From NCBI RefSeq assembly GCF_902652985.1, contig NC_047030.1, forward strand, positions 4,154,001 to 4,218,000: DNA of 64,000 nucleotides. The letters run 5' to 3'. Positions 23,009 through 59,000 of this stretch are shown piece by piece. Both the position numbers and the translations under genes were made by a program. The notes below the pieces were generated by a model. The model saw only the letters and a list, made by a program, of their open reading frames with translations, was not told the origin of the DNA and searched no databases. Origin of the DNA: Pecten maximus. Its lineage: Eukaryota. The number at the start of each line of letters is the position of its first letter. Positions within the stretch are counted from its first letter, which is position 1.

Positions 23009-26000
23009 CTGACAAACATAAAGAATGTATATAAGGGGTGCCACTCTCTAACTAATGCTTTATAGGGCAAATAGAAATGGGTTGAAGGAGTGGTCATACA
23101 AATTAACGATATCGTGATATATATGTTTATTTAGACTATTTCTGCTTTCCTTTAATTTTCAGATTTACATATCAATCTCGAGATTTTTTCATGGGTTCCA
23201 ATTTCTGGAATTTTTAAAGAAAGATTTTAAACAAAAAGGTGTATTTTTGCAGATATTAAATTAAACATGACTTTTTCATAAAGTTTATTTTTTTGAAATT
23301 ATCTATTTTATTATCTCTGCGAAAATATCTGAAAATAGAACCTGTTGTACAAATTAACCAATAAATCAGACCGTTGAATGAATCTCAGTGTTGGGCTGTA
23401 CTTACTGTCCATAAGTCTCCAGTTAAGGAGAGGATCATACACGAAGGCTTCCAGCACAGCCATCAGGCTGTCCTTGTGTTCACGAAGTACCTCCATAACA
23501 CTCTCACAGGTCATACGGTAGTTACCATCAATACCCGTCACCTACAACATATCAATATAATTATCTCATTGGGCTCGCAGTTAGTTATCTTCAATACCCG
23601 TCACCCACAATGTATCAATATAATTATCTCATTGGGAAATATTCCATACCATTTTAGGATATGAAATTTGGTGTGTTTTAAATTCACGATTGCTCGCCCA
23701 GTATAGTTTTGTCTTCACTCCACATGTTCTCTTCTGGAAACTTAACAATATGAGGATTACATGGATTTGTAATATATTTACACATGGAAGGTGTCACCGC
23801 AATACGTGGATTTGTAATATATTTACACCTGGAAGGTGTCGTCACAATACGTGGATTTGTAATATATTTACACCTGGAAGGTGTCGTCACAATACGTGGA
23901 CATGTGATACATTTACTCATAGAAGGTGTCATCAATGAAGCATATGATGCTTACTCTTCAGAAACACCTGGTCTTATTTCCCTTTTACCTTTTACTCATA
24001 ATTTGGCAGAGTTTTATCTTATTTGAATAAGAGTTACAGTGTTTAATGTGCTGATTTTTCATTTAATTTATTTCAAAATAAGTTGTTGAAGTATTCCATC
24101 TTTTCGTAATGCAGAGTTACTGTCCTTGTGAGCAGGTATCGATCGTTACTTAATTTGTTTTTGAAAGTAACATTACTAATTTGTGAGAAAACAAATGTAA
24201 TTTTCGCATGCAAAATAATGAAGTAACAATCAATACCTGCTCAAAAGAGCAGATAACTCTGCATTATGAAATGATAGATTATATCACAATATATATTAAC
24301 CTATTCCCTTTGTATTTTTGAAAGTTTTACCCTGGATTTCATGTCAGCATTCATACAAACAATCACATTGCTGTAAATATCTCAATGTTTTGTTCTGTGT
24401 ATGTTTGAATATTTATGGACCAGTACCTCCATAGCACTGATAAGCATTCTGGTGAGTCGGAATGGGATCTTCTCTGGAAATTTCTCTCTCACCATGGCAA
24501 CCTCAAAACAATCCCCAAAATCGATGTGGATGACCTTGCCACTGACTCTATCCAGCATCAGGTTAGAAGGATGCCTGAAATAAAACAAGATCAGGTTACA
24601 TCAATGTTTTATATCACTGATACGTACATCAATGTTTTATATCACTGATACGTACATCAATGTTTTATATCACTGATACATCAATGTTTTATACCACTGA
24701 TATATCAATGTTTTATATCACCACTGATACATCAATGTTTTATATCACTGATACATCAATGTTTTATATCACTGATACATCAATGTTTTATACCACTGAT
24801 ACATCAATGTTTTATATCACTGATACATCAATGTTTTATATCACAGTTACATCAATGTTTTATATCACTGATACATCAATGTTTTATATCACAGATACAT
24901 CAATGTTTTATATCACTGATACATCAATGTTTTATACCACAGATACATCAATGTTTTATATCACCGATACATCAATGTTTTATATCACCGATACATCAAT
25001 GTTTTATACCACAGATACATCAATGTTTAATATCACAGATACATCAATGTTTTATATCACTGATACATCAATGTTTTATATCACCACTGATACATCAATG
25101 TTTTATACCACTGATACATCAATGTTTTATATCACCGATACATCAATGTTTTATATCACCGATACATCAATGTTTTATATAACCGATACATCAATGTTTT
25201 ATATCACCGATACATCAATGTTTTATATCACCGATACATCAGTGTTTTATATAACCGATACATCAATGTTTTATATCACCACTGATACATCAATGTTTTA
25301 TATCACTGATACATCAATGTTTTATACCACTGATACATCCATGTTTTATATCACTGATACATCAATGTTTTATATCACTGATACATCAATGTTTTATATC
25401 ATCACTGATACATAAATGTTTTATATCACCACTGATACATCAATGTTTTATATCACTGATACATCAATGTTTTATATCACCACTGATACATCAATGTTTT
25501 ATATCACTGATACATCAATGTTTTATATCACCACTGATACATCAATGTTTTATATCACTGATCATACATCAATGTTTTATATCACCACTGATACATCAAT
25601 GTTTTATATCACTGATACATCAATGTTTTATATCACTGATACTGAGACATCAGTAAATGGACAAATCAACGAAGTAAATAGTACAGAAAGTAAAATTGAA
25701 TGATTTGCTGAAAGGAATAATTGGGTGGTTGGTTTGCACACTCGCCTTTCACCTAGGTGGCGAGGTTTGATTCCCTGATCGAACGTGAAAAAGTTAGAGG
25801 TCAACACACCACGGGGGTTTTCTTTGTGTAGTTTGGTTTTCACCCACAGTTAGACCTGTTGCACGCTTTCATCTTGGCCAACAAGCATGATTAATATAAG
25901 TTGGTATAGCTTGTTTTGCAAATGTTGAAAAATAAATAAAGTTTATGTAAATGGTTACAAATGAAATATGAGCCATGATTATAATGTACATTAAGTTATT

Positions 26001-56000: not shown

Positions 56001-59000
56001 CCATAAGGTTTAATGCCCATTACATTGAAAACTAATTATTGATGGCCCTATTACATTGCAATGGCAATTACTTAGTGAAAACTTTAATGGGTTTGTAATG
56101 GGCAATTTGACAGTAGTGATAAGAGTTAATGACTATTAATGTTTTTGTCAAACCATTAAAATCCTTAAAATGCATTTAAATTTTATTGTTTTTTTTTCAG
56201 ACCCATTAATTTTGTACATTTAATAGTCATTAATGTTAAATTAAAAGCCATTATTAAAATAATTAATGATCATTATAAATGTTTTGTTAATAGCCATTAA
56301 AATGTATTAATTAAGTACCATGAACTAATTGATTTGTCTCAACCCTTTGATGATCATTAAAATTGAAAACTGTCACATTTAAAGACTATCAAACTTGTAT
56401 TAAAATTTTTCAATTAATAGCAATTAAAGGTACAAAATTAATAGCATGATTGATGGTTTTATGATGGGAAATTTTAATGGGGTTTTTAATGGCCGTTTTA
56501 AGGGCTTGGGTATGCAGTAGTGATCCGCAGCACACAATTATCTAACCAGAAATATCTGCAAGTTTTTTAACCACAGCACCACAATGAAAGATACATATTT
56601 TAAATATTATACCTGTAATGTACTTTGTGGAATCACAGAAGTACAAAATTAGGGCAGAATTAAATACTACAACCTAATATAGCAGAATTTACCAGTTTAT
56701 GTAACAGTTGTTATCATTTTTGTTACACAAAGAGTTAAAGAATAAGTTCCAATTTCCTGTAGACAATGACTTACCTCCCTTTTCTGTAGCGAGGAGGAAT
56801 CCTGTAGCATATCAATGATGATAGGGAGGAGTTCATCCATACGTTTCCTCATCTCTGTCCCAGTCACCTGTTTACACAACATAAAACATTGATGGTGCTA
56901 CCAGGTCACCTGTATACATAAAACATTGATGGTGCTACCAGGTATTTATATATTAGTAAGCTCATTCCTATTTACACAACATAAAACATTGATGGTGCTA
57001 CCAAGTATTTAAATATTAGTAAGCTCATTCCTGTGTTGTATTTGTGCCGGGTAACAAGCTCATTTTTTTCTGTTTCATATTCCTATTATTGATGTTAAAT
57101 CATATGATGATGAATCCTTATCATACTTTACCTGAGCGAGTTCACCGATAGCAGCCAGCACACTGATAGTTACACTAGGGTTATGGTCCGAGTCCTTCAG
57201 CTTTGGGATCAATACCTGGACAATCAATGATATGTATTCACTTATTTTTGAAAATCAATCTGAATTTTGAATGTTCATTTTTCATATTAAGACCATCTTC
57301 AAAGATTTTTTAATATCTTTCAAGACTTTTACAATAGAATAGAAATTCATTTGTGAATCATTACTAATTAAATAAAAATATTTCAAAATAAGACATGAAT
57401 TGGACATAAGCAGTCTTTCATTAAATTCAGTAGAAGATTTTTAACATAAACTATCTATTTATTACAATTTACATGTAATATTCCATTGTGGAATTTCAAA
57501 TTCATTGTCTATGTCATCACCTACATATAAATGAATTATTCTGATGATAGGAGATGGCTTAAAAGTTGCTATAAATTGTACCAAATCCATTATACCAATT
57601 TTGGACAATAAAATATGTTTAATGTAAAAAGACATGAATCAACGATGAGGTTGTGTTCCTAATCTCTTTTGTACAATGAAGACAAACATTCATGACTATA
57701 ATGAAATAAAACATTGTAATTCTCATTATCCTCAAATAAGAGATCATCTGTGATTAAGTTATTGGTACAAGTCGTTAGTATGGACAAGGAAAGGTCAGTT
57801 GTTTCCTCTTTTAATTTCTTTTCATGAAATTAAAACTCTACATTTTTCTTTAGATTAGAAGATGGCAAAATATACCTTCAATATAGGCTCCATATATGGT
57901 CGTATGAGCCGTGCTGCATTAGCAACAAGATGTCCTAACATGCGGGCAGCCTGTTCTTTGTTACGACCAACACCGCTATGTTCCAATTCTGTCAAGATCT
58001 GTTATCAAATGGAAATCACTCAACATAGAGAACATAAAACAGAAGTACTTTCTAGAGTAAGAAATACATAGGCTGAAAAATATGTCTGATTTCTGAAGGT
58101 GAATCATTTTATCATCACTTTGTTGGATCCAAATTTTTCGGAAATCACAAATACCAACATGGATGAATCTGTCTTTTATTCAATATTTTTATTTTTGGAT
58201 TTCAAGTGTAAATGGAATAACATGAATTTCCAATACCCTGTAAATATGTCCTCAACTTTTTAAGAATATCTGTCAGTAATTTTTTGGAATTTTACTTCTT
58301 TTGCAAAAACAATTCCACACCAAGTCATTTACCTGTATGAGAGTTTTACGTAATGAAGGCATCACATAAGCTGGGTTTTTACTGCTCAGTCTGCCAATCA
58401 TACAAATGGCCAGCTCCCGGATGTCAAACACCTCATCATTTAGAGCAACAAACAGTGCACTCAGATTCTCGGCCTGGGCCAAGTGGGGGTCAAACCTCTC
58501 GTCCAGTGACATCAGTACGCAGAACCGAATATCAGAATCTGTCAAACAAACCACCAAAGGATCTTGGTAATATGATGGAATTGGCAATCTCTGTATTTAA
58601 GATGGATTAAAGTTTATATCAGTACAGAATATGAATATAAGAAAAATTTCTGATTGTTTAAAAAAGAACGTTTGTAGAATTGATATTGGCGTCATAACTG
58701 GCAGTAGCCGAGGTAGCCACATATGTCAGCTATTTCAATTATCCTGAAATCTGCCATGTCACCCACATAAAATCTTTGTCCATTGTTATCCAATTAAGGG
58801 ATAACTGAACAAAGTCTGAGTGAATGTAGCATTCCACTTTATAGTTTTCTGACTAAATATCATGTAATATCACAGATTATGTAGGTTACCTGTGTCTGTG
58901 ATGCCAACCACAAGAAGCTTGTGAAGGACTTCGGCCACTGTGTTCATGGCAGCCATACTGATCTGCCCTTGATTTGAGGCCAGGAGCTGTAACACATCCA

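Follow-up and report, generated by a model that had tools for sequence, protein, structure and literature searches.

The window analysed here, a 64,000-nucleotide stretch of Pecten maximus DNA, was found to contain an intact mTOR gene with 45 coding exons on the minus strand, and 7 further mTOR introns lie upstream, beyond the window end. Every one of the 44 introns in the window is GT..AG. The gene model forms a single open frame of 2126 aa, and its kinase exon matches human mTOR (E 1.5e-24). Four reference TOR proteins were compared with it: three are 67-78% identical and the fourth gave only a piecemeal alignment. Roughly between a fifth and a quarter of the genic DNA in the regions studied consists of local tandem duplication (tandem arrays make up 27% in the window, 20% in the myosin regions). 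Eight exon edges of mTOR, four donors and four acceptors, are copied head-to-tail into the adjoining introns, and the tandem unit crosses the authentic exon-intron boundary at these junctions, whereas seven abutting arrays do not cross it. The scallop mTOR arrays belong to an already known type of repeat, the 'mirage'. The features are as follows.

22671..63952, minus strand: mTOR gene, 45 coding exons in the window, from protein alignment and RNA joints
23517..23636, minus strand: acceptor duplicate at 23541, single, 63 nt, GG replacing AG in the copy
32040..32443, minus strand: donor mirage at 32426, units of 60-84 nt, 5 copies, 2 with GT
34997..35566, minus strand: acceptor mirage at 35045, units of 91-94 nt, 5 copies with AG, RNA at the native site
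37094..37349, minus strand: donor mirage at 37342, 31-nt unit, about 8 copies, RNA at the native site
44105..44437, minus strand: donor mirage at 44414, 64-nt unit, 3 exact GT copies, RNA at the native site
51505..52093, minus strand: acceptor mirage at 51524, 53-nt unit, 10 copies, 97% matches, AG in 10/10
52666..53062, minus strand: donor mirage at 53042, 27-nt-based unit, 13 copies, RNA at the native site
56863..57036, minus strand: acceptor duplicate at 56867, one AG copy 42 nt upstream, intron of 264 nt
24597..25642, no strand assigned: 24-nt array ending 22 nt from acceptor 24574, without junction copy
26333..26980, no strand assigned: 43-nt array starting 13-17 nt from donor 26994
38092..38556, no strand assigned: 26/63-nt compound array starting 10 nt from donor 38567
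40943..41189, no strand assigned: 26-nt array starting 4 nt from donor 41194
46178..46271, no strand assigned: 58-nt duplicate starting 2 nt from donor 46274
50779..50895, no strand assigned: 76-nt duplicate ending 15 nt from acceptor 50763
62450..62532, no strand assigned: 26-nt array starting 13 nt from donor 62546

The original prediction had named eight junctions with intronic copies of the exon edge, and all eight of these coordinates proved to be true junctions of the verified gene model. Its copy counts stood for 51524 (10), 32426 (5, counted by eye in the sequence) and 37342 (7.8 units, each with only 8 exonic nt); at 35045, with about 6 predicted, 5 copies with AG are present, and at 53042, with about 14 predicted, 13 copies come from a 20-mer scan and 11 GT-bearing copies pass the splice-site filter. 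At 44414 the expected five or so copies correspond to an array of 5.3 units, with 3 exact GT copies in it. Retention of the splice site, also claimed, was observed in many but not all copies (10/10 at 51524, 2/5 at 32426, 0/1 at 23541); the change of AG to GG makes the 23541 copy unusable as a decoy. At 56867, intron-only copies follow beyond the single AG copy. The mirage units are 27-94 nt long, i.e. of minisatellite size, and each of the eight introns that host them is longer than 250 nt. The five further arrays predicted within about 25 nt of a junction do exist and begin 4-22 nt away; the duplicates at 46274 and 50763 were absent from that list. Units are unrelated among arrays, except for the resemblance of the 38552 array to its own neighbour and a single 14-nt match. 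A search of 875 kb of other Pecten maximus stretches gave no match for 14 of the 15 junction-associated arrays. Both results bear out the proposed independent local origins.

For the enrichment analysis each array was collapsed to one unit and compared with random placement. In mTOR, arrays that span a junction are no commoner than chance predicts (6/28 observed against 4.1-4.8 expected, p 0.21-0.34). In the simulation the collapsed introns are only ~430-460 nt long, so that chance alone places a unit of 30-90 nt across a junction in about 1 case in 7. An excess of about 2-fold is seen for arrays lying no more than 25 nt from a junction (15/28 against 6.3-7.4 expected, p ~0.0003-0.0005), in a gene and with a cut-off that were both picked by the original prediction after the pattern had been seen. 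The enrichment over random placement that it envisaged is thus present within 25 nt but not among the spanning arrays, and this picture was unchanged when detector stringency was varied. A null limiting exon overlap to 25 nt gave far smaller p values and was discarded because observed overlaps reach 67 nt. The 7 held-out introns at the 5' end of mTOR contain one array, which lies 15 nt from a donor and fills most of its intron.

Thirty-eight gene regions of the same genome, with myosin, P-type ATPase, CCT and tRNA-synthetase genes, served as controls. Introns with weakly aligned flanks were excluded, which kept 151/247 for the myosins, 95/101 for the ATPases (4/10 regions, lacking a close reference, were left unaligned) and 88/169 for the CCT and synthetase genes. 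An aligner check with an insect reference gave 26/30 introns fully correct, and with both flank scores at least 5 the donor was always correct and one acceptor wrong; the check is optimistic because the splice matrices derive from the same gene. Spanning arrays were found at 30/668 control junctions (~1 in 22) as against 6/88 in mTOR (Fisher p=0.30), and the 29 control arrays lie close to the chance level of 21.4-25.4 (ratio 1.14-1.36, gene-bootstrap CI 0.74-1.93). Clear mirages with up to 77 copies are present among them; GT or AG was carried by 318/324 control copies, a figure left unused because the matching rule biases it. The useful result of the study is a background rate of about 1 in 22 junctions in this scallop sample, on donor and acceptor sides, with no depletion relative to chance.

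Near junctions, the controls together showed a 1.18-1.42-fold excess (CI 0.9-1.8, lower bounds 0.89-1.02), and mTOR with 15/28 arrays stands above their 47/166 (p=0.015). Young transposon DNA in mid-intron, which the null ignores, would inflate the ratio. Heterogeneity between genes exceeds the null (chi2 48.5, 25 df, mTOR included). The P-type ATPases have 18 near arrays against 9.4-11.2 expected and 13 spanning arrays against 5.9-6.8, and in IARS1 8/14 arrays are near junctions against 3.9 expected. The myosins, whose junctions were mapped with distant references, showed no near-junction excess (14 observed, 13-17 expected); with all 247 introns counted, and not just the 151 confident ones, the figure was 27 against 21.6-26.7. 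Myosins differ from the other genes in near-junction arrays (p=0.009), and the non-myosin controls reach 33/89 against 19.6-22.6 (ratio 1.46-1.68, CI 1.05-2.17), on a split drawn only after the ATPase result had been seen. A forward test in the CCT and tRNA-synthetase genes gave 15 near arrays against 9.3-11.4 expected (p 0.03-0.11). The excess is limited to 25 nt, the 26-150 nt bins showing none. Near and far arrays are alike in age as judged by copy identity (p 0.83-0.90) and in GC (p 0.12-0.13).

The consequences of splicing at the copies were predicted from the sequence. At six junctions a stop would be met after 1-24 codons. The 53042 site had been regarded as the exception to early stops, and this applies only to its nearest copy, which lies at +27 nt, would add 9 residues and leaves the frame open; the remaining 10 lead to a stop after 31-58 codons. 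Every other listed mTOR copy would give a premature stop. Such stops are expected by chance from the frame shift and the AT-rich intron sequence. Avoidance of the reading frame is absent, the nearest copy being in frame in 5/8 cases in mTOR and 6/27 in the controls. RNA contigs cross four of the eight mirage junctions (35045, 37342, 44414 and 53042) with the native site used each time; at 53042 the contig departs from the genome at the native donor, and RNA depth over the array is nil. No decoy joint was present among the RNA-contig joints listed for these four junctions, in assembled contigs, which drop rare isoforms. Contig X9/X16 (apparently one data set) stops 7 letters beyond the 53042 donor, just where the decoy acceptors of 51524 begin to differ in sequence from the native one, an end compatible equally with decoy use and with a synonymous allele.

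We consider it likely (probability about 0.68) that the copies are neutral products of general minisatellite formation which survive because splicing probably keeps to the site beside the complete exon. Minisatellite-type duplication is common in genic DNA and a unit of 30-90 nt would at times straddle a junction by chance; slippage or unequal exchange may then amplify it into the intron, with growth towards the exon presumably purged. The native site would stay chosen under exon definition, since human data show a preference for cross-exon-proximal sites when introns exceed ~250 nt (PMC9225289); this agrees with the main RNA at 4/8 junctions and probably holds at the others. Rare slips would mostly hit a stop and enter nonsense-mediated decay, probably as a by-product of AT-rich intron sequence. 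The modest near-junction excess may reflect shelter from deletion beside exons together with the choice of an extreme gene in the original prediction. If shelter were at work, the arrays beside exons should be the older ones, and copy identity shows no such difference.

A mutational process biased to exon-intron boundaries had been suggested as one cause of the pattern. Here short tandem duplications would arise preferentially at the junctions of presumed broadly (germline) expressed genes, e.g. from breaks or R-loops where transcription or splicing pauses, followed by ordinary minisatellite amplification. The excess in mTOR, the P-type ATPases and IARS1 together with its absence in the myosins, its confinement to 25 nt and the equal divergence of near and far arrays are all in keeping with this process. 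Against it stand the pooled control ratio, whose interval touches 1, the post hoc myosin split with its single forward test, the distant myosin references and the neglect of mid-intron transposon DNA in the null. The 1.2-1.4-fold excess in the controls, nil in the myosins and about 1.5-1.7-fold in the other genes, lends the suggestion weak and mixed support; any bias of array origin toward junctions would be weak, and the process is considered rather unlikely.

The other proposal, in which the copies work as decoy or poison sites and their number tunes productive mTOR mRNA, is very improbable. Many copies score equal to or above the native site (11.0-12.8 against 11.0 at 53042; 11.2 against 10.3 at 56867), nearly all would give premature stops, the X9/X16 end would allow some decoy use, and tandem-repeat length affects splicing at many human loci, according to the part of PMC10078293 available. 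However, unrelated genes carry such structures just as often, in-frame copies are not avoided, the arrays have unrelated units, AG has been lost in one copy, frame shift and AT-rich sequence suffice to account for the stops, and no decoy joint was listed at the four junctions covered by RNA. As the RNA examined uses the real sites, the copies are likely to be harmless by-products and not a control switch. An origin of the arrays in misassembly at exon edges is hardly credible. Short-read contigs do break within arrays and copy numbers are unconfirmed, but X13 DNA contigs from a separate study pass from exon into array at two sites (37267-37839 and 52996-53800), and the objection is largely refuted as regards the existence of the arrays. 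X13 also covers other parts of the 53042 array with differences of its own (substitutions and a 6-nt insertion), in contigs too short to count its units, and the copies diverge in structured ways (70-97% matches). The preferred reading remains that of neutral minisatellite copies.

For mTOR itself little consequence is expected, as the gene is intact and its main RNA is normal at the junctions covered. The mirage rate implies that this mollusc strongly tolerates identical competing splice sites, and scallop mirages offer numerous natural cases in which to test exon definition and the gain of introns by duplication; the proposed link to models of intron gain is supported. It is doubtful whether scallop duplications are born preferentially at junctions of presumed broadly expressed genes, with transcription or splicing steering where minisatellites start; if they are, mirages at ~4-5% of junctions would make this genome a large natural collection for studying splice-site choice and the gain of introns through duplication. 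Should the non-myosin excess hold genome-wide, it would link splicing or transcription to the sites of duplication.

The original prediction left open whether such arrays had been described, and precedents exist in the amphioxus mirages and the human F7 VNTR. Mirages in print come mainly from a few lancelet and human genes; no mollusc report or genome-wide enrichment test was found in literature that included few subscription papers, and the available part of the amphioxus huntingtin paper (PMC2206037) holds nothing relevant. In the available parts of the amphioxus accounts (PMC3087553, PMC3902484), mirages are described for the globins BflGb6 and BflGb9, Adh3, troponin C and PGBD5, with units of 10-160 bp at the 5' or 3' boundary, GT or AG in many but not all copies, and a normally spliced main mRNA. 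The scallop arrays are similar in that minisatellite-like tandem copies cross the exon-intron boundary on either side; they differ in occurring in a bivalve, with eight cases in one gene, and in having a background rate (30/668 control junctions) and a random-placement test, which those parts do not include. In human duplicated genes, internal tandem repeats at exon-intron boundaries are described in the portion of PMC2812944 available as variable raw material from which new splice patterns and introns can arise. The boundary repeats of mTOR resemble them, but those cases concern young redundant paralogs with the transcript often changed, whereas scallop mTOR is conserved and intact, and no altered transcript appeared among its RNA contigs. 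In human F7 the first unit of the 37-bp VNTR of intron 7 crosses the exon/intron boundary, the most upstream donor is used and the identical downstream donors are silent, as far as the available part of PMC1557585 describes; the upstream donor wins even over a downstream copy that keeps the frame, and 53042 has such a copy. The F7 case concerns one donor array studied by mutagenesis in mammalian cells, whereas the scallop gene presents four donors and four acceptors, followed in assembled RNA contigs.

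The mTOR arrays are a real and unusually dense case of a known repeat type, the mirage, in which tandem copies of an exon edge and its splice site lie in the adjoining intron. Within this genome of 918 Mb, 45 minus-strand mTOR exons were mapped in the window from 63952 to 22671 by tblastn and hand refinement, and the kinase exon was found to match human mTOR (E 1.5e-24). Exons of two other genes in the genome match proteins labelled Pecten maximus at 100% identity, which marks it as a scallop's. Each of the 44 introns in the window has GT..AG ends, and joining the exons gives a reading frame that stays open over 2126 residues; seven more mTOR introns lie beyond the window end. 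The eight positions named in the original prediction are authentic mTOR junctions, and each is adjoined by the claimed copies of its exon edge and splice site, the splice site itself being lost at 23541 and in part at 32426.

Junction copies in mTOR
23541, minus strand: acceptor copy, one, AG lost
35045, minus strand: acceptor copies, five
51524, minus strand: acceptor copies, ten, near-identical
56867, minus strand: acceptor copy, one
32426, minus strand: donor copies, five, GT kept in only 2/5
37342, minus strand: donor copies, about 8 units with 8 exonic nt in each
44414, minus strand: donor copies, three, exact
53042, minus strand: donor copies, thirteen

The array units were found to be locus-specific and unrelated to one another, as had been proposed, and the five abutting arrays named earlier are real; two further ones were found at 46274 and 50763. 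Use of a copy had been said to bring an early stop in every case checked except 53042. This held for six junctions (stop after 1-24 codons). At 53042 the exception applies to the nearest copy only, which stays in frame; the remaining ten of eleven lead to a stop after 31-58 codons. The acceptor copy at 56909 (56867 junction) outscores the native site, and its host intron of 264 nt is the shortest carrying a mirage; judged from sequence, this predicted decoy is the best candidate for leaky use.

An assembly artefact was considered and rejected: the arrays were found in independent DNA. Contigs of X13, a DNA run from another study, cover the passage between exon and array at 37267-37839 and at 52996-53800. 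At 53042 they carry their own variants inside the array; the copy numbers are those of the reference assembly alone. X13 also shows several joints within the compound array at 38092-38556, which suggests that this individual has its units arranged differently. At the distal ends of the arrays at 37342 and 53042 lie short high-copy repeat fragments (37009-37053 and 52466-52647), where contig depth is very high in every run; the former was found again in 16 of 90 further stretches of the genome. In the 5' part of mTOR, outside the window (window-equivalent 65675-66308), a 23-nt array begins 15 nt past a donor and occupies most of the intron. Intron 37 holds a 182-aa open frame (29305-29853, minus) whose match to Transposase_1 is weak (E 0.003, under the curated cut-off), probably a mariner-type remnant. 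The window also contains a C2H2 zinc-finger gene (516-9007, plus; Pfam matches 5799-6011 and 8645-9004), whose 870-aa open frame at 516-3128 includes a possibly coding 42-nt repeat in 29 copies, and a C-type lectin domain gene fragment (13650-14503, minus; PF00059, E 4e-14).

A mutational origin weakly biased toward junctions was weighed using a detector of local direct repeats blind to junctions, with arrays collapsed to one unit and placed randomly, straddling permitted; this matters because introns, once collapsed, have a median length of just 427 nt. For mTOR, junction overlaps number 6 among 28 arrays (29 on the other-strand run), with 4.1-4.8 expected (p 0.21-0.34), the figure of eight overlaps being a hand count since the detector scores 37342 and 56867 as abutting. 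Arrays no more than 25 nt from a junction number 15 of 28, with 6.3-7.4 expected (p 0.0003-0.0005). For this gene, the proposed enrichment is seen in near arrays, though gene and cut-off had been picked with the pattern in view, and not in spanning ones. For controls, introns were placed by a checked spliced aligner in 19 myosin, 6 P-type ATPase and 13 CCT or tRNA-synthetase regions, retaining 334 confident introns and 166 arrays. Overlaps and near arrays numbered 7 (8.5-10.7 expected) and 14 (13-17) in myosins, 13 (5.9-6.8) and 18 (9.4-11.2) in P-type ATPases, and 9 (6.4-8.0) and 15 (9.3-11.4) in CCT plus tRNA synthetases. A spanning array was present at 30/668 pooled control junctions vs 6/88 in mTOR (p=0.30). 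By gene-level bootstrap, the near-junction ratio was 1.18-1.42 in controls (CI 0.89-1.81; 31 regions with arrays), 1.46-1.68 in non-myosins (CI 1.05-2.17) and 0.81-1.03 in myosins, a division made post hoc; mTOR, one ATP13A gene and IARS1 sit in the upper tail. Junction-spanning arrays are therefore common across the genome, without depletion and with a modest excess at most. A weak origin bias toward junctions appears rather unlikely. In an ATP13A3-like gene (G000:C16:564001-584000, minus) five intronic arrays were found and every one spans a splice junction; two of them measure about 3.2 kb, with 70 and 77 copies; a Na/K-ATPase alpha region (G000:C13:192001-212000) is 71% tandem array, with 37 copies of one donor.

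Regulation of mTOR by the junction copies is unsupported and is considered highly improbable. RNA contigs, which drop rare forms, cover 4/8 junctions (35045, 37342, 44414 and 53042). X11 is RNA on record; for X9, X14 and X6 this status was guessed, their contigs being spliced at GT-AG, and X9 and X16 gave identical figures and were counted as one. Among the joints listed for X9, X14 and X6, the native joint was found in 2/3 runs at acceptor 35045 and 3/3 at donor 37342, and a 4660-nt X9 contig joins native donor 44414 straight to the next exon. At 53042, the X11 and X9/X16 contigs depart from the genome at the native donor and show no depth over 52682-53010. The X9/X16 contig stops 7 letters past this donor, i.e. 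7 letters into the exon at 51517-51524, where the native exon start first diverges from most 51524 decoy copies; as the differing base is synonymous, an allele fits this end as well as decoy use; array-exon exchange is a third candidate.

Neutral, tolerated junction copies are our preferred reading, with a probability of about 0.7. A short duplication straddling a junction by chance would keep the native site next to the full exon, and copies with only an exon stub would fall in the intron. Arrays might then grow via slippage or unequal exchange, rare mis-spliced RNA would decay, and arrays close to exons may be sheltered from deletion; the single test of such shelter, which compared copy identity, gave a negative result. 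For human introns above ~250 nt, splicing is described as favouring the sites nearest across the exon (PMC9225289), and the eight mirage-bearing mTOR introns measure 264-3356 nt, all above this value. In the reported F7 VNTR experiment, identical downstream donors were silent, in-frame ones too (PMC1557585). We infer that both rules may apply in scallop.

Scallop genomes are described as rich in tandem repeats, the largest repeat class in Chlamys farreri at 11.3% (PMC5700196), and the repeat detector marks 20-27% of genic DNA in the present genome. Among the papers listed in our literature searches there was neither a mollusc report nor a genome-wide enrichment test. The type is known from amphioxus genes, and apart from length instability between haplotypes, on which X13 shows substitutions and a 6-nt insertion inside the 53042 array, the mTOR arrays show each of its defining features tested.
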